From contig JBAZLX010000001.1 in the NCBI GenBank assembly GCA_041650075.1, forward strand, positions 1 to 38,225: a stretch of 38,225 bases of DNA, written 5' to 3'. Under the pieces are notes generated by a model, which made no database searches, had not been told where the DNA came from, and worked only from the letters and a program-made list of their open reading frames with translations. This stretch comes from Bdellovibrionales bacterium. Lineage in GTDB: Bacteria > Pseudomonadota > Alphaproteobacteria > UBA9219. Shown one piece after another: positions 1-38,225 of this stretch; the stretch's first letter is position 1, and each line of letters begins with the position of its first letter. Position numbers and translations under genes: made by a program.

Positions 1-127
1 GACATAGCGGTACTGAAACAAAAATATTACCAACACAATTTGACTGTAGGACATTATCATTGCCGCTATAATAAAATCTCATAGATGTTGCAGCTGTTGT
101 TAATATTGTTCCAGCAAAATCTCTAAA
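1..127. repeat. Terminal overlap copy 1, identical to 38099..38225
   Basis: Compared base by base: the first 127 nt (gacatagcggtactgaaac...aaaatctctaaa) recur exactly as the last 127 nt of the window. Confidence 0.95.
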
Positions 128-14327: not shown

Positions 14328-14345
14328 GTCTTATGAGGAGATAAA

Positions 14346-14534
14346 ATGATGACAAAATATAGAGTGGTCTATAACCGAGGATGGTATTATCCCCAATTTA
14401 AGAAATGGTGGATGCCATTTTATGTGCCTTGCTTTTGGTTTGGGATGAATAATGATGATTATTCTACTTTGGACAGCGCTAAAAAAATAATAGCCTTGCA
14501 TAAAATTTCCGGGAAAACAGTATATGAGGAATAA
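14346..14534 (+). CDS. Hypothetical small aromatic-rich protein (cassette gene 1)
   Basis: 62-aa ORF with a strong SD (GAGGAG 5 nt upstream), on the strand opposite the surrounding structural operon. Confidence 0.6.
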   Translation: MMTKYRVVYNRGWYYPQFKKWWMPFYVPCFWFGMNNDDYSTLDSAKKIIALHKISGKTVYEE

Positions 14535-14544
14535 CCTTAAATGA

Positions 14545-14808
14545 ATGGACACCTTAATGAATAAAAAGACATATAAGAAAAAGCCAAAAGAGTGCGAGAT
14601 GTGCGGAACTGTCAAAGAAATGACGGCACGTGGGAAGTGGTGTTCCAATCGATGCAAGCAGGAAAACAAGAATAGTAAAAGTAAAAATGCCGTTGCGGTT
14701 TTGGATATTGTGAAATTCATGATTGTAGATGATCATAAGATAGAAGCATTTACTTGGGTGAATGACAAGCAGTTCAGTGAGATGTTCCCACCGATGCAAG
14801 GAGATTAA
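14545..14808 (+). CDS. Hypothetical zinc-ribbon protein (cassette gene 2)
   Basis: 87 aa with N-terminal CEMCG-x11-CSNRC. The start is uncertain (14545 or 14557). Confidence 0.55.
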   Translation: MDTLMNKKTYKKKPKECEMCGTVKEMTARGKWCSNRCKQENKNSKSKNAVAVLDIVKFMIVDDHKIEAFTWVNDKQFSEMFPPMQGD

Positions 14809-15162
14809 ATGACACAAAATGAAAATTTTATAAGAAAAGTTAAACAACTCGAGCAAGATTGTAAGCTTGGCAAAATGGAGGTAGAAGCTCTTATAGTTCC
14901 TGACATTATTGATTTGTCGTGCCATTCTGCGATAAGGATTAAATTGATTAATGGGGAATATGTTGATATTAGAATGCGGACTAGAATGTGGGAAGACACG
15001 CAACCACATAATTGCGAATATGGTGGGTACGGGGACGCTGTGACATATTGTACGGAGCTTGCCAATGGTTTTTTAGAGGTAGGTAATGATACAGGAAATG
15101 GAAACTTTGTAAACTTCTGCCCATTCTGCGGGTATGAAGCAAAAGTTAAAATAGAATTGTGA
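14809..15162 (+). CDS. Hypothetical Cys/His-containing protein (cassette gene 3)
   Basis: 117 aa, with AAGGAGA 7 nt upstream and the start abutting the previous stop. Contains PHNC and a C-terminal CPFCG knuckle. Confidence 0.6.
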   Translation: MTQNENFIRKVKQLEQDCKLGKMEVEALIVPDIIDLSCHSAIRIKLINGEYVDIRMRTRMWEDTQPHNCEYGGYGDAVTYCTELANGFLEVGNDTGNGNFVNFCPFCGYEAKVKIEL

Positions 15163-15171
15163 ACAAGGGAC

Positions 15172-17202
15172 TTATTGCCCCTCATTACCCATAGTCATCT
15201 CATTAATCTGTTTAGCTGTATTAATAATATGCTCTCTGCCTTGACGTGTAAGATTTGTTAGCGTCTCTTCTGTCTCTGCTTTTGTCTCTTCCGCCTTAGC
15301 CATTGCAAGTGCTGTGTCTGCTTGCGCCTTCATTGATTTCGCCTGAGCCTCTTGTGCCGCTGCTTGTAGATACTGCGCTTGCGGGTCTGGTTGCTGATTC
15401 TGCATCTCTGCGATAAGGTCTTGCTCTTCTTGTTTAGTAGGCGTTACCACTCCCATACGTAATAGTTGTTTGCGATAGTATTTACGGATATCCCCAAGCC
15501 CTTCTCCTTCCATGTTCATAAGAGCCGCAGCACCTAATACTTTTACATCGCTTGGGTCAGTTGTAATCTGCATCATGCCGGTTAGCGCACGAACTACTGA
15601 GGCCTTACGAGATGATGATGAAGGCCCAACATCTACGGAGATATCCATCTTGGCTTCAGATAGATCATTCTTTCTTTTGATAGTTCCTTCTTCATCGAAA
15701 ACCTGTTCGTTCAATTTTACATAATTAATTTCTTCTTGGGTTCCGATAGATTTCATTTTTCTATCATCTTCCACATAAATATCACTTGCCATCGATAGCC
15801 AAACCTTAGCGGCGTGCTTGATCGTTTTAGCAAAGTTAGACACATAGATGAACGATTGCATATCAAGACGGTTTTGAATCATCTCAACTGCTTTTCCTGA
15901 GATATTACTAACTACTTGCTCTCCTGCTTGCTGATTGCCCAAGATGTCATTCATGTCGGTATCTGATAGCTGGATCAATGCCGCTAATGTTGCCGGAACA
16001 TTCGGTGGGCGAACGTAATCTGTAGCTCCTTGATTTACACTATTTCCATTTGAGTCCATGACTGGGTTAATGAGCAAGTACGGATAATTCTTAACATCAT
16101 CTTCCGACCATCGCTGCTCATGACCTGCTACCTGTTCAGGAGTAAAAATAGGTTTTTCATAAGATGTTTTTGAACTGATCTCTGCAAGCTTTGAAATCTG
16201 CATATTTTTAAGACGTTGAGCATCTTTAACATATCTGATGGCTCCAGCACATCGCTCTACATTATCAATAAACCATCGTTGTCCGTAAAATGGAATAATA
16301 GGAATGTATTTGCCTGCAATGATCCCGCAATCTTCAATTACTCTTGCACCGTCTATAATGTATTTGTGTACTTTTTTACGCTTAATTTTGCGGGTACGTA
16401 CCTCTTTAAAGCCTCTATCATTTAATTCGATTAGTTTTTCTTCAGTAAGATCCGAGTGTTTATATTTTTCACTCTCTCCCATCATGCCTTCAAAGATATG
16501 AATCGTTTCGGTTTTCTCTTCAAACTTATAGTATTCAGCTACATACACAACTTCAGGGCTAAACCAGTCAAAATATCTCTGATGGATTGTCTTATAAAGA
16601 GATGATGGGAATTCCCCAAACTCTTCCTCGTATGCCTCTGGTGTTTTGGCGATCATAACAAAAGCATAGACCCCGTCCGATTTATCGTATCTTTTTGCAT
16701 TTAGGTCAAAGAATACAGACGTATCTGCGTCATAAATTGGCTCAAATAAAATGCGTTGCTTTTCGTTTTCGTCGTCCTCGTCGTCTTCGTAGTCTGAGCG
16801 CAAACGAAACGCACCGAATCCGCCCATACATCCTTCCTCAAAACAGTTGTCGTATGCTTCATCACCCTGACTGTCTTGTTCATCTGCACGGAATAGCCCT
16901 GCACACGTATCAGCTAGATCATCATACTCATCGCCCTCTTTGCTTGTAAACATTGCAGAGATTTTATTATTGCGATATTCTGAAAATATACGCTTGACCG
17001 CTAAATTGGCTTTATTTACTTCAATCTTCGGCTTATTCTCAAATTGTTCCCCGAGTGTGCCTTCCCATTGTGCACCTGGAATAGTGGCGAAGCGTCGGTC
17101 TTGTAAACACTGCATACGCTCGTCGCGCTGTACTTTTTGGATAATATCAAACGCTTTGATAGCTTCAGTATGAATCTGTCGGAGTTTTTCTTCTTTGCTC
17201 AT
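15172..17202 (-). CDS. Portal protein, P22-type
   Basis: 676 aa. GAFRLRSDYEDDEDD...EPIYDADTSVFFDLNAKRYDKSD and KRKKVHKYIIDGARVIEDCGIIAGKYIPIIPFYG...DAQRLKNMQIS closely parallel remembered P22 gp1 (GAWRLVTDYEDQ..., [34 protein letters not shown]...DGQRLRNMIMS). Confidence 0.9.
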   Translation of the reverse strand: MSKEEKLRQIHTEAIKAFDIIQKVQRDERMQCLQDRRFATIPGAQWEGTLGEQFENKPKIEVNKANLAVKRIFSEYRNNKISAMFTSKEGDEYDDLADTCAGLFRADEQDSQGDEAYDNCFEEGCMGGFGAFRLRSDYEDDEDDENEKQRILFEPIYDADTSVFFDLNAKRYDKSDGVYAFVMIAKTPEAYEEEFGEFPSSLYKTIHQRYFDWFSPEVVYVAEYYKFEEKTETIHIFEGMMGESEKYKHSDLTEEKLIELNDRGFKEVRTRKIKRKKVHKYIIDGARVIEDCGIIAGKYIPIIPFYGQRWFIDNVERCAGAIRYVKDAQRLKNMQISKLAEISSKTSYEKPIFTPEQVAGHEQRWSEDDVKNYPYLLINPVMDSNGNSVNQGATDYVRPPNVPATLAALIQLSDTDMNDILGNQQAGEQVVSNISGKAVEMIQNRLDMQSFIYVSNFAKTIKHAAKVWLSMASDIYVEDDRKMKSIGTQEEINYVKLNEQVFDEEGTIKRKNDLSEAKMDISVDVGPSSSSRKASVVRALTGMMQITTDPSDVKVLGAAALMNMEGEGLGDIRKYYRKQLLRMGVVTPTKQEEQDLIAEMQNQQPDPQAQYLQAAAQEAQAKSMKAQADTALAMAKAEETKAETEETLTNLTRQGREHIINTAKQINEMTMGNEGQ

Positions 17203-27981: not shown

Positions 27982-28206
27982 ATGAAGTTAAATGAATATT
28001 TGAGCCAATGCGATAAAAACGAGGAACGCTTCCAAGCTGAATACGATGCCGACATGGAAAGCCTCGACGAGTACATTAACGATGCGTATGCGATTTTAGA
28101 GCAAGCGCAATCTGTATTGTTTTTTAAACGTGATATTTTCAGCTCTTGCATGGACAAAGCTGATTTTGATAATTTGATTATTGAGAAGATTAAGGAGTTG
28201 TTGTGA
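27982..28206 (+). CDS. Hypothetical acidic protein
   Basis: 74-aa ORF directly upstream of the Erf-like gene, with a GTGA overlap. Confidence 0.55.
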   Translation: MKLNEYLSQCDKNEERFQAEYDADMESLDEYINDAYAILEQAQSVLFFKRDIFSSCMDKADFDNLIIEKIKELL

Positions 28207-28808
28207 AAGAATTATTAAAAGCAAAAGCGGACTTTAGAAAAAAAGGCGTTGTGCTTGTTGCAGACAGACAAAAAGATGGCGCCGGAGGATCTTGGAAGTT
28301 TGCAGGCGAGGACAATATGATAAAAACGATTCAAGCACCATTGACAGACTGCGGCCTTGAAATCATATCCACAATGAAAGATGATAACGTAGTAGTTACT
28401 CTTTGGCACGTTGGAAGTGGAGAGAGTATTGAATCATATATTAAACTTCCACCAATTAATCCTCGTAAAGATAGCAAAGGGAACGATATGTATCTTGATG
28501 CTGAAATCGAGCGTGGCAAGCAATTCGGCTACTGGAGCAGAATCTTAACAATTCGTATTTTAGGTCTTAGTGATATTGACCCAGAAGACATGAATAACCG
28601 CCCAACTGATATAACAGATGATACAGTCGAAATGCGAACTGATCTTGAAACACTCATAAAAGCCACAAGCGATGCGTCAGTTACTACGCAATGGATTTGT
28701 ATAAATTACAAAGTATCAAGGACTTCCGATTTGACACCCAACCAACTAAAACATGTAATTAAGCTTTTGCAACAAAAGGCAAAGCAAAATGAAAATCCTA
28801 AATCTTGA
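28203..28808 (+). CDS. erf: Erf-family single-strand annealing protein
   Basis: SWKFAGEDNMIKTIQAPLTDCGLEIIS...TLWHVGSGESIES...GYWSRILTIRILGL...DPED fits the ERF pattern (YkYas...i...GL...H.SGE...TYaRRY.l..lLGl..dDD). GTG start. Confidence 0.65.
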   Translation: MKELLKAKADFRKKGVVLVADRQKDGAGGSWKFAGEDNMIKTIQAPLTDCGLEIISTMKDDNVVVTLWHVGSGESIESYIKLPPINPRKDSKGNDMYLDAEIERGKQFGYWSRILTIRILGLSDIDPEDMNNRPTDITDDTVEMRTDLETLIKATSDASVTTQWICINYKVSRTSDLTPNQLKHVIKLLQQKAKQNENPKS

Positions 28809-29391
28809 ACAAGGAAGCGATGAGTGGTTTTCGGCTCGTCTAGGCGTTCCAACTGCATCAAGATTTAAAGATATAATTACCCCCGCAAAGGGAGACAAAT
28901 CGGCAAGCTACAAGGGGTATATGTACGAACTTATAGCTGAACGGCTAACTAAAGATAGAGAAAACTTTTTTAAATCTGAGTGGATGGAGCGAGGCAATGA
29001 AATTGAGCCGCTCGCAAGAGCATCATATGAGTTTATGCACGAAGTAGAAGTTCAACAAGTCGGAATGATCTTTAATGATGCAATGACGATCGGAATTAGC
29101 CCTGATGGTTTAGTAGGAGACAATGGAGGCTTAGAGATCAAATGCCCTAAGCCAAGTACCATTGTTAAATATATGCTTGATGGCGGGCTTCCATTGGAAT
29201 ATAAACCGCAAGTTATGGGTAGCCTTATGATTAGCGGTCGTGAATGGTGGGATTTTTTAGCATTTCATCCACTGATGGACTTTTACCAAATCAGAGTTTA
29301 CCGTGATGAAGAGTACATTAAAAAGATGGAAACTCATTTAAACGATTTTGTCGATGAGCTAGAAATTAATTATAGCAAATTGAAAAAATGA
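28789..29391 (+). CDS. YqaJ-like recombination exonuclease
   Basis: LEQGSDEWFSARLGVPTASRF, ERGNEIEP and SPDGLV...GGLEIKCPK are YqaJ/lambda-Exo-type motifs. It is adjacent to the annealing protein gene. Confidence 0.85.
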   Translation: MKILNLEQGSDEWFSARLGVPTASRFKDIITPAKGDKSASYKGYMYELIAERLTKDRENFFKSEWMERGNEIEPLARASYEFMHEVEVQQVGMIFNDAMTIGISPDGLVGDNGGLEIKCPKPSTIVKYMLDGGLPLEYKPQVMGSLMISGREWWDFLAFHPLMDFYQIRVYRDEEYIKKMETHLNDFVDELEINYSKLKK

Positions 29392-30911: not shown

Positions 30912-31238
30912 ATGCTAAAAGAATATTCCAAAGGCGTTGCATTTGTTATTGCAACAATAGTTATTATTTCAGCGGTATCATTGGCTATTAAATATTTTGG
31001 TCAGCCTATGAGCCGATCAATCGATCAAAAGACATTTATGGAATCACAGCAGTATATTGATGGTTCAATTCGCGATCTGTCAAAATATCAGGTTCAATAC
31101 GCGGCAGGTGACGATGCTGCGAAAGCAATTATCCGATCAACGGTGCAACATCAGTTTGCTAACTTTCCGAGCGAAAAAGTGCCTTTGCGCTTACAGCCGT
31201 TTTATAGCTCTATGATGAGCGGAGGAGATTTAAAATGA
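30912..31238 (+). CDS. N-terminally anchored membrane protein
   Basis: The start at 30912 (MLKEYSKG) has AAGGAG 6 nt upstream. TM segment VAFVIATIVIISAVSLAI. The track start is 30891. Confidence 0.55.
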   Translation: MLKEYSKGVAFVIATIVIISAVSLAIKYFGQPMSRSIDQKTFMESQQYIDGSIRDLSKYQVQYAAGDDAAKAIIRSTVQHQFANFPSEKVPLRLQPFYSSMMSGGDLK

Positions 31239-31732
31239 AGCGTACCTTTTTATTTTTTATGGCTTTAACTTTATCGATGTTTTTAGCAGGGTGTGATGTT
31301 CAAGAGTCAGGCGAGGAACTACAAGCCAGACAGCAAGCGGAGCAAACAAAAATTGCAGTGCAATCAACTGGTATGCCGTCTATCATAAACTTTACTGAAA
31401 AAAAGAATATGAAGATGATTTTGGAAATGCGGGATAACGCTGGGCTTCGTACTTATACATATATGCGAGATATGCACGGCGTTATGCACAAGCTGTGCGA
31501 TTCTATCGGGTATCCTATTCCGTATTCCACACAATATACAAACCCTCAATATGTATCAGAGCAAGGCAACGGATATGGATATGCTATTATCCCACAAGCT
31601 GACCCAAACGGTCTTTATTCTCCTGAATCAGCGGAAGGGTCTTATGTTATGTGTTTGAACCCAAAAGATAAACAGCTTACCCCGGTATATGTTGAAGAGC
31701 GGCTTATAACAAGCCCATACGAATTACAATAA
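31235..31732 (+). CDS. Lipoprotein
   Basis: Signal peptide MKRTFLFFMALTLSMFLAGC with lipobox LAGC. 165 aa, ATGA-coupled to the upstream membrane protein gene. Confidence 0.75.
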   Translation: MKRTFLFFMALTLSMFLAGCDVQESGEELQARQQAEQTKIAVQSTGMPSIINFTEKKNMKMILEMRDNAGLRTYTYMRDMHGVMHKLCDSIGYPIPYSTQYTNPQYVSEQGNGYGYAIIPQADPNGLYSPESAEGSYVMCLNPKDKQLTPVYVEERLITSPYELQ

Positions 31733-31741
31733 GGAACAAAA

Positions 31742-32083
31742 ATGAGTTTGCCAAAAACATATGGACTATTTAGACTAACACGCAACGCTGATTTAAAATA
31801 TACTCAGGACGGAAAGCCAATCCTAAAAATGGGGCTTGTTGCTAGTGAAAAATATGCTGATCGTGAAACGCAATGCTTCATTGATGCAACGGTATTCGGA
31901 AAGATGGCGGAGACTATCAACACCTATGCAGGTGAAAAAGGCACACAGATTTTTCTAACTGGAAAACTACAAACAGAAACATGGGAGACTGATGGACAAA
32001 GACGCTCTAAAAATTCAATGATTGTCGAAGGTTTTGATTTCGTATCTAAGCCTAAAGGAAACGGAGAAAACAACCACAGCTGA
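31742..32083 (+). CDS. ssb: Single-stranded DNA-binding protein, OB-fold part, ending at an in-frame TGA
   Basis: 113 aa. GLFRLTRNADLKYTQDGKPILKMGLV...FIDATVFGKMAE...GTQIFLTGKLQTETWE is an SSB OB-fold pattern. The linker and acidic tip are missing from this ORF. Confidence 0.85.
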   Translation: MSLPKTYGLFRLTRNADLKYTQDGKPILKMGLVASEKYADRETQCFIDATVFGKMAETINTYAGEKGTQIFLTGKLQTETWETDGQRRSKNSMIVEGFDFVSKPKGNGENNHS

Positions 32084-32206
32084 TATGCAAACAGTAGCGA
32101 TGAAGCTAACCGTGGGGTTAATGCTCCGGTGTCGTATGTGCCACGCCCTATGCCTGAAAGTAATTTCCCAGAGATTGACATTAACGAAGACGAGATACCT
32201 TTTTGA
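32081..32206 (+). other. In-frame TGA plus a 40-codon same-frame extension encoding the SSB linker and DEIPF tip
   Basis: In the same frame as 31742: TGA(32081) then YANSSDEANRGVNAPVSYVPRPMPESNFPEIDINEDEIPF, ending at TGA(32204..32206). The frame was checked codon by codon. Confidence 0.8.
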
Positions 32207-32226
32207 TACAATCTTTATCATAATTA

Positions 32227-32251
32227 AGCGTACTTTTATATTTAGTACGTT
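32227..32251 (+). terminator. Weak stem-loop after ssb
   Basis: AAGCGTACT-tttatattt-AGTACGTT, 8 bp including one G-T pair, with only a weakly T-rich sequence after it. Confidence 0.3.
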
Positions 32252-32283
32252 AAACTTATTCTATCAAAACAAAAGGGGATAGG

Positions 32284-32664
32284 ATGGGATCTGCATTATA
32301 CTACACAAATGGATGCAATACACTGCTAAGTAATATGGATGATGATATAAAATCATTGACCTGTAAAGCAATTAAAGAATATGAAAAACGTGGTGGCAAA
32401 TTACGATTATACATTGTAGATAAAGCGTACTATGGGAATAGGTGTTTACTTAAGGATCATTTTGGACTTCATACAATGGATAGAGGAAATGATCATGGTG
32501 AGTTTTGGCGTGTTTATGAAGAAGTAGTAAAGGGGTTTAACGAGTGGAAATGGAAACTGATCGGAACAAATCTTTCTTTTGAACAATATATGACTGATGA
32601 AGAGGCAAATGGTATTAAGTATCCAATTGAAAAGATACGGATGAGTGGCAGGAAGCGGAAATGA
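32284..32664 (+). CDS. Hypothetical protein
   Basis: 126-aa ORF with a GGGGATAGG SD region. Confidence 0.6.
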   Translation: MGSALYYTNGCNTLLSNMDDDIKSLTCKAIKEYEKRGGKLRLYIVDKAYYGNRCLLKDHFGLHTMDRGNDHGEFWRVYEEVVKGFNEWKWKLIGTNLSFEQYMTDEEANGIKYPIEKIRMSGRKRK

Positions 32665-35164: not shown

Positions 35165-36340
35165 CTATGAAATAGCTCCTATATCAACCGTATTGCGTGA
35201 TATTTCCCCGTGTTGCTTATGGTAAGTAATAGCGGTCATATTACGCTTACTACGATACCCATGCTCATTATGCCATGCGTCTTTTGCGGCAAGGGTATTA
35301 AATGATTCAGCTATGCACGTTCTCATCTCCCATGAATGTTTACTATGGACATGCCCTAAAATCCAATATCGATGTTTTGTTTCGCTCCAAATATCCTCAC
35401 AATCTGAAGCCATTAATTCACCTAAATCACTTGGCTTAACAGTATCTCCATGCGTAACGGCTATCAATGTCTTTCCAAATTGATGATACCAAAACGGCTT
35501 AGGCTCATTAAATATCTTAACTCTAGGCTCATTCCTATACCATGCCGAAAGGAACTCACTCATGAACATTTCAAGTGTATAGGAGTGATTTCCCATAGCA
35601 TTACGTACCATGACCGTATTATGCTTCAATAGGCATTTATCAATAATCTTAACCATTAATTGCATACCAGTTCTGATAATTTTAGTTAGCCGCCCGTCCA
35701 CGTCTAATACATTCCCGCTCTTAGGCGTTCTATTTGTTCCATCATTACCATGAAACCAATCTCCACAGTTTACTATTAATGCAGATTGTGTTGATCGTGT
35801 TGCATCGGTTAGATGTGATACAGCATTAGTTAGTAACGTTTCAGATATACACATATCATAATCATCGCCAGTCTCTTCGTGCCATGATAGCATTGAATGA
35901 TGCTGATCCCCAATAATATAAGCTGTCAATAAGTCATCATCTACAATATTAATATTTCTAACTGGTTTTGATTTGCCTTCAACTTGACTACAAAGCGATT
36001 CTATTGCCTCTTGCATAGCATTAAATCGATCTTCTTCTTTAGCTACTTTCTGAACCCACTCATTAGTCTCCCCATTCTTATTGGTAAATGTTGAAATCTT
36101 CTTAATGGCAAAACCCATCGGTACCGGATGGTTTAAATTTGCTTGGGGGGCAAACCCTGCACTTGATGCAATGGACTGAATTTTATAAAACATACGACGT
36201 ATAGATGATTCATCTTTTTTAAGATGTTGTGCGGCCTTTGAGAAATTGCCGTGATCTATAATTGCTTTAATTGTTTCGGATTGAAGTGGTGTGCAGTAAT
36301 CGAGCAGTGTGGTTAATTCTTCTTTATTATATTTCATCAT
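35165..36340 (-). CDS. HTH domain fused to a calcineurin-like metallophosphoesterase
   Basis: 391 aa. The N-terminus ETIKAIIDHGNFSKAAQHLKKDESSIRRMFYKI is HTH-like. The ordered phosphoesterase motifs are IIGDQHH, CGDWFHGND, MGNHS, VTHGD and LGHVHS. Confidence 0.75.
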   Translation of the reverse strand: MMKYNKEELTTLLDYCTPLQSETIKAIIDHGNFSKAAQHLKKDESSIRRMFYKIQSIASSAGFAPQANLNHPVPMGFAIKKISTFTNKNGETNEWVQKVAKEEDRFNAMQEAIESLCSQVEGKSKPVRNINIVDDDLLTAYIIGDQHHSMLSWHEETGDDYDMCISETLLTNAVSHLTDATRSTQSALIVNCGDWFHGNDGTNRTPKSGNVLDVDGRLTKIIRTGMQLMVKIIDKCLLKHNTVMVRNAMGNHSYTLEMFMSEFLSAWYRNEPRVKIFNEPKPFWYHQFGKTLIAVTHGDTVKPSDLGELMASDCEDIWSETKHRYWILGHVHSKHSWEMRTCIAESFNTLAAKDAWHNEHGYRSKRNMTAITYHKQHGEISRNTVDIGAIS

Positions 36341-38030: not shown

Positions 38031-38225
38031 CTATACATGCATCTCTCCGCTTATCCAAAAATTACCACTAGTTGAGTAAACATTATTAGCATTAAGATGA
38101 CATAGCGGTACTGAAACAAAAATATTACCAACACAATTTGACTGTAGGACATTATCATTGCCGCTATAATAAAATCTCATAGATGTTGCAGCTGTTGTTA
38201 ATATTGTTCCAGCAAAATCTCTAAA
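38031..38225 (-). CDS. Tailspike 3' end, continuing 1..1552 across the circular junction
   Basis: Joining position 1 to 38098 keeps the frame: ...VPLCHLNANNVYSTSGNFWISGEMHV, with TAG at 38031..38033. The circularised gene is 1620 nt (539 aa). Confidence 0.8.
   Translation of the reverse strand, partial: FRDFAGTILTTAATSMRFYYSGNDNVLQSNCVGNIFVSVPLCHLNANNVYSTSGNFWISGEMHV
38099..38225. repeat. Terminal overlap copy 2, identical to 1..127
   Basis: Exact 127-nt identity with the window start. An overlap of this kind is typical of a circular contig reported with a k-mer-length overlap, or of a short direct terminal repeat. Confidence 0.95.

Follow-up and report, generated by a model that had tools for sequence, protein, structure and literature searches.

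The stretch of DNA analysed here (the window; 38,225 nt) carries an ssb gene in which the acidic tip of the protein is separated from its OB fold: the product of the open reading frame (ORF) ends with ...GENNHS, and ...EIDINEDEIPF is encoded behind an in-frame TGA. The question raised by this locus is why the stop codon is there, and the initial annotation had left a choice between a very recent nonsense mutation, an assembly error, programmed UGA readthrough and suppression by a host or phage factor. The explanation put forward here as the probable one is a young, lineage-private GGA>TGA nonsense mutation, which is real in the population and leaves a tail-less SSB. The perfect in-frame continuation after the stop has the look of a young nonsense mutation and is no evidence for recoding. 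Annotation pipelines already call the allele a 113-aa SSB, and taken alone a truncated allele matters little; an environmental phage, though, seems to maintain itself, its complete genome being present in more than one library, with an SSB devoid of the motif thought to mediate all partner contacts.

By reading of the sequence, ssb starts with the ATG at position 31742 of the + strand, and 113 sense codons precede the in-frame TGA at 32081-32083, which stands in the context CAC AGC TGA TAT GCA. The coordinates of all features are compiled in Table 1. The Shine-Dalgarno-like AAGGA (31731-31735) overlaps the TAA stop of the preceding gene (31235..31732). Following the TGA, 40 sense codons (32084-32203) in the same frame as ssb translate to YANSSDEANRGVNAPVSYVPRPMPESNFPEIDINEDEIPF, without further stops or frameshifts, and run into a second TGA. 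The sequence thus reads exactly as the initial annotation had it, i.e. an OB-fold ORF (31742..32083) ending at a TGA, 40 codons leading to DEIPF, and then another TGA. Most intact SSB relatives also stop right after IPF, and some subfamilies possess a conserved short extension.

Table 1 Features of the ssb locus and of the upstream exonuclease gene in the window
Feature	Position	Strand	Remarks
YqaJ/RecE-like recombination exonuclease	28789..29391	+	phrog_149 exonuclease, E = 3.7e-41; early operon shared with ssb
Shine-Dalgarno-like AAGGA	31731..31735	+	6 nt 5' of the ssb ATG; read from sequence
Truncated ssb ORF	31742..32083	+	113 aa; whole OB-fold core, without linker end and without acidic tip
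Premature TGA	32081..32083	+	aligns with GGA (Gly) of relatives; codon alignment versus L001, L010, L012, L013 and L016
Orphaned 40 codons	32084..32203	+	remaining disordered linker and conserved tip PEIDINEDEIPF; in frame, undecayed
Original ssb stop	32204..32206	+	second TGA, immediately after ...IPF

The Pfam SSB family (PF00436) matches residues 11-100 of the ssb product (E = 3.5e-15, 56.4 bits; cut-off 26), and solved SSB structures match up to query residue 113-115. Since the matched chains are OB cores of 112-119 residues, the truncated product comprises a complete OB fold. The 40 post-stop codons share 78 % identity with the C-terminal end of P0004, an intact relative (E = 7e-20), and the last 12 residues of the remnant equal the tip that is found most often in the family. 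Beyond their TGA, the other examined TGA-terminated ORFs of the window stay open for only 0-21 codons. From the identity to P0004 and the unusually long open run, the segment downstream of the TGA is certainly the rest of the ssb gene; its assignment to ssb in the initial annotation is borne out by this identity and by the codon alignment with relatives. A separately translated tail peptide (starting from GTG 32129, 25 aa, or from ATG 32150) was considered and dropped, as no convincing ribosome-binding site was seen on reading the sequence. The ATG within TGATATG (32085) was also rejected as a start of the tail, since it opens another frame (mechanical ORF 32022..32282).

The stop is not conserved in relatives. 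Those whose DNA keeps the linker segment all have GGA (Gly) at the stop position (5 of 5; L001, L010, L012, L013 and L016), the codon alignment placing AGC GGA GGA TAT of these five opposite CAC AGC TGA TAT of the window. Five IMG/VR relatives with 58-81 % identity also lack any interruption. The eight closest intact proteins from a database of 5.8 billion clusters (76-80 % identity, 154-157 aa) have Gly at the stop position, none of them being interrupted, and read ...GENNSGGYANGSDEANRG... (NNSGGYANGS) where ssb of the window has its stop. The other distinct SSB loci from IMG/VR and metagenomes that were read to their stop are likewise all uninterrupted, with the exception of L020 (see below). 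No intact close allele (>80 % identity) of the window lineage was found among ~15 billion proteins, the truncated allele being the only form of this lineage. Megablast of positions 31400-32600 against GenBank phages produced no match, tblastn retrieved distant SSBs alone (<35 % identity), and the SSB search of genome contigs yielded no relative and hence no assignment of a host. Inspection of this codon in relatives, as proposed in the initial annotation, therefore revealed a sense codon (GGA in 5 of 5 DNA sequences, Gly in 8 of 8 closest proteins), which counts against readthrough and favours the option of a very recent nonsense mutation. Most simply, the TGA would be one G>T transversion away from the GGA of the relatives.

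The surroundings of the stop show a small patch of divergence. The nine nucleotides CAC AGC TGA differ at five positions from AGC GGA GGA of the relatives, and the flanks are nearly identical (window 32072-32083). This patch sits inside the fast-evolving linker of ssb and holds the palindrome CAGCTG; it would be best explained by three events, namely a 3-nt insertion, the deletion of a GGA repeat unit and a single substitution.

The exact 113-aa SSB was found on at least five contigs, including JGI 3300035208, Logan SRR8542065 and Logan SRR18595299, and NCBI (MFA5040049.1) and ENA records carry the identical protein, too. Over the 5.0-6.3 kb that could be compared, the three fetched copies of the allele show no difference. 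Because separate assemblers and separate runs arrived at the same consensus, an assembler error is very unlikely to have generated the TGA allele; the assembly error considered in the initial annotation is at odds with the same product and identical flanking DNA across pipelines and runs. The JGI copy (IMG 3300035208, scaffold Ga0376279_0000728) belongs to an IMG taxon from leachate well LW1 of a landfill in Southern Ontario (bioRxiv 10.1101/2024.05.30.596742). All copies of the allele are clonal and appear to originate from one landfill site; their independence is limited, and they are treated as a single lineage.

An exact 127-nt terminal direct repeat (window 1-127 and 38099-38225) represents the overlap of a circular assembly, and the true phage genome is circular, complete and ~38,098 bp in size. 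The Logan contigs SRR8542065 and SRR18595299 (38,128 nt each) are compatible with this circle, their overlap being shorter (~30 nt). The window contains genes for a large terminase and for coat and portal proteins of the P22 type (PF11651, E = 2e-95, and PF16510, E = 6e-150, respectively). MFA5040049.1 is filed in NCBI under a metagenome-assembled genome labelled Bdellovibrionales; as the contig represents a P22-like phage genome, circular and complete, this label probably stems from an artefact of binning and does not identify the host.

Decoding of the TGA as sense was evaluated from TGA usage in the window. Together, sequencing or assembly artefact, use of TGA as a sense codon (Trp in code 4, Gly in code 25) and selenocysteine are exceedingly improbable, even though the Gly of the relatives coincides with the meaning of TGA in code 25 and all copies may derive from one site. 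Besides the consensus shared by JGI and Logan assemblies of different runs, TGA ends 29 of the 70 window ORFs (greedy ORF set), 17 TGA stops overlap the following start codon as ATGA, and ssb itself terminates with TGA after IPF. ARAGORN detected no tRNA or tmRNA gene, and no suppressor tRNA, in the window. The initial annotation had judged genome-wide reassignment of TGA unlikely, which agrees with these counts; an alternative code is ruled out by TGA usage, no other gene needing TGA as sense. Selenocysteine was rejected on TGA usage, too, and on homologues having Gly and not Cys; the Rfam scan of 31500-32500 gave no match at E <= 1, and the fold of 32060-32160 (101 nt around and after the stop) was no better than that of shuffles (z = -0.30), with no SECIS-like fold. 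A terminator scan of 31600-32400 found none. Highly improbable, too, is a functional UGA readthrough, in which minority decoding as Trp would mix tailed and tail-less subunits and thereby provide tetramers with fewer tails. It would be compatible with the 40 intact downstream codons and their commonest family tip, and with the tetrameric state of SSB, by which a small tailed fraction could matter. UGA is moreover the leakiest stop in E. coli, with a leak of at most a few per cent where hotspots occur, and TAA the tightest (PMC11126739). In E. coli reporters, TGA was read mainly as Trp, a detectable leak occurred in only 14 of 40 premature-TGA reporters, and a T after the stop improved termination (PMC11126739). 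The base following the premature TGA is U, and by E. coli rules, which may not be those of the host, this UGA-U context favours termination. Programmed readthrough would be marked by a conserved stop and by a context that is leaky (by E. coli rules) or an RNA structure that stimulates it from downstream. Neither mark is present: the stop is conserved in no relative, the scans described above found neither downstream structure nor known RNA element nor suppressor tRNA, and both analogous lineages (see below) use TAA. In addition, the compared copies are identical over 5.0-6.3 kb, so there is no sign of selection on the tail since the stop arose. These results speak against the programmed readthrough suggested in the initial annotation and lend no support to suppression by a phage factor, considering that the stop is not conserved and no tRNA gene was detected by ARAGORN. 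At most, the premature TGA may leak in frame, incidentally and at a low level.

The age of the lesion was approached via substitution rates. Compared to relatives, dN/dS of ssb is 0.07-0.12 before the stop and 0.10-0.18 after the stop where estimable, with saturated synonymous sites (dS >1) and nearly all of this divergence predating the stop. On these values, purifying selection acted on the tail throughout essentially the whole divergence from relatives. As the remnant is undecayed and its dN/dS is 0.10-0.18, the stop should be young relative to the divergence from relatives. The pattern of an intact remnant would equally arise from a tail that is still being translated.

For the preferred explanation, a nonsense mutation, the following course is proposed. 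One G>T transversion would have converted GGA (Gly) to TGA in the disordered linker of a phage ssb, and the mutated gene would yield a 113-residue SSB consisting of the OB fold only. Judging from truncated SSBs of E. coli and HK620, this tail-less protein should still tetramerise and coat ssDNA, and it would lose partner docking via the ...DEIPF tip. The 40 downstream codons would constitute an untranslated or barely translated remnant, too recent for decay. Full-length SSB would be formed solely by background UGA leak, mainly with Trp at position 114, and would not represent an evolved feature. Tail-less E. coli SSB keeps tetramer formation and ssDNA binding and loses partner docking. The SSB of P22-like phage HK620 lacking its last six residues retains its size-exclusion behaviour (tetramer) and ssDNA binding (PMC5928155), but neither recruits its cognate annealase Sak4 nor stimulates annealing, which it blocks instead (PMC5928155). 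Tetramer formation and ssDNA binding of the 113-aa SSB would be expected from its complete OB core and from this HK620 tail-deletion protein. The mutation itself was presumably neutral or mildly deleterious. Several points can be held against a young accidental mutation. The truncated allele is the sole form of its lineage and resides in a genome that is circular and complete and occurs in more than one library; it is thus not obviously crippling and no obvious dead end. The tail-less HK620 SSB is not neutral, and by analogy a fixed loss might come at a cost. An intact tip is also predicted by continued translation through leak. Finally, the independent stops just before the tip in two further lineages hint at tip loss being tolerated or favoured.

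Tip lesions elsewhere in the SSB family were traced in a wider search comprising 133 SSB protein clusters. Among 55 aligned intact SSBs, the final Pro-Phe of the tip is invariant and the upstream tip positions are >90 % conserved. In L009/L020 (JGI 3300033074; L009 3001-3408), the sequence ...APEVVYEKK-TAA-QSNLHEIDIISDVIPF-TGA contains an in-frame TAA with 16 codons left before the IPF end. In L109/L110 (JGI 3300035181 and 3300035180; L109 1501-1986, L110 679-1164), ...APVVHERKLP-TAA-NNIPEIDIDEDTIPF-TAA has 15 codons left. A fourth case, P0016/L115 (391-852), carries a 1-nt deletion (GAG-TTGAT versus the expected GAG ATT GAT) 11 codons from the end, which puts the tip VDIDTETIPF and its stop out of frame; it is known from a single 927-nt contig, for which a sequencing error is possible. 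Overall, three independent in-frame stops are located between OB fold and tip (TGA of the window, TAA of L009/L020, TAA of L109/L110), and tip-disconnecting lesions occur in 4 of the 133 clusters (3 %), the window included and OB-fold truncations being invisible to the searches. That two of the three nonsense cases involve TAA, the tightest stop, argues against readthrough as a common mechanism. Recurrence of these lesions could reflect either the mutation-selection balance of a weakly selected accessory function or occasional positive selection, and no enrichment is claimed. Identity between L009 and its intact cluster mate L114 amounts to 93 % in the OB fold and 66 % in linker and tail; this drop may reflect decay after the stop but could equally be due to a recombination breakpoint.

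These lesions bear on the alternative that the same nonsense mutation has risen through an advantage conferred by the lack of the SSB tail. The phage could thereby escape host defence systems sensing phage SSB or SSB-coated ssDNA, or avoid competition with host SSB for host partner proteins. Such a selected tip loss is unlikely. It finds support in the three independent in-frame stops and the one frameshift (L115) within one family with an otherwise nearly invariant tip, and in the window allele being the consensus of assemblies that are circular and complete and derive from more than one library. Moreover, Retron-Eco8, Hachiman and DARNA are documented to be triggered by phage SSBs, and escape mutations have been located in SSB. 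The reported escape mutations are, however, mostly OB-fold missense mutations, and T7 gp2.5 without its C-terminal Phe still activates DARNA. The frequency of 4 in 133 clusters (3 %) may be mere mutation-selection balance, and clustering of the lesions in the linker is partly ascertainment, since OB-fold truncations escape the searches. Quite unlikely is also the broader proposal that removal of the PEIDINEDEIPF tip has been selected recurrently in P22-like phage SSBs, by TGA in the window, TAA in two lineages and a 1-nt deletion in a fourth. Drivers may possibly be escape from the sensing of SSB on ssDNA or a retuning of recombination, with the leaky UGA perhaps keeping a trickle of tailed subunits. 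If recurrent tip loss were selected, it would link the loss of the SSB tip to phage-host conflict and provide natural tail-less alleles for testing.

In addition to lesions, the family search revealed SSB subfamilies with a conserved C-terminal extension beyond IPF, in which the Phe is not C-terminal. Two types were observed: IPF-[S/N][R/Q]G(Y) and IPF-AP[I/M]GLQYP[M/L]S[L/V]FV[M/I]. The extended subfamilies comprise P0015, P0039, P0049, P0080, P0081, P0092, P0103, P0119 and P0126, and furthermore P0069, P0108 and P0128 (L111-L113). Recognition of SSB by partner proteins is attributed to the free carboxylate of its terminal Phe, which renders a non-terminal Phe unusual. Interpretation of the extensions (IPFSRG, IPFAPIGLQYP...) as stop-loss lesions was rejected, as they proved to be conserved subfamily variants with more sequences.

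Several known systems resemble the locus in part. Naturally tail-less paralogous SSBs such as Bacillus subtilis SsbB, an OB-only SSB of similar length (~113 aa), are not known to have any tip-coding sequence and are conserved as such. In contrast, the tip-coding sequence is intact downstream in the window, which points to a recent lesion. In phage Qbeta, coat protein and A1 are likewise connected by an in-frame UGA followed by an open and meaningful extension, with decoding as Trp. Stop and extension are conserved and essential in Qbeta, whereas the stop of the window is private to one clonal lineage, the relatives encode Gly, and the context favours termination. Engineered or proteolytic tail-less SSBs (OB-core crystals 1eyg and 1sru, HK620 SSB minus its last six residues) end right after the OB core, as does the window form; the latter differs in being natural and in constituting the consensus within a phage population from the environment, and its behaviour is predicted. 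With the HK620 SSB and other PF00436 SSBs of temperate and P22-like phages, the locus shares the OB core, the disordered linker and the acidic tip ending in hydrophobic-Pro-Phe. As in HK620, the gene is situated in an early recombination region beside an exonuclease gene. The tip of the HK620 SSB is needed for loading the cognate annealase (PMC5928155). Unlike in HK620, the tip in the window is cut off by the TGA, and the predicted main product resembles the engineered tail deletion rather than the wild type.

The gene for the YqaJ/RecE-like exonuclease is located 2.4 kb upstream of ssb, and PF09588 (YqaJ) is recorded on loci identical to the window. This early-operon context suggests a role of the SSB in phage recombination. 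For the neighbours of ssb, PHROG and Pfam searches were mostly empty and did not find the putative annealase partner. A 201-aa ORF (28203-28808), without match in Pfam or PHROG, lies directly upstream of the exonuclease gene and overlaps it, and thus occupies the position expected for an annealase. Further downstream, a 391-aa ORF on the minus strand (35165-36340) gave no Pfam match. Between the portal gene and the scaffold/coat region, the minus strand (14331-15185) contains three ORFs of 129, 151 and 126 aa that overlap one another in different frames; this could be an overlapping-gene arrangement or merely mechanical ORFs.
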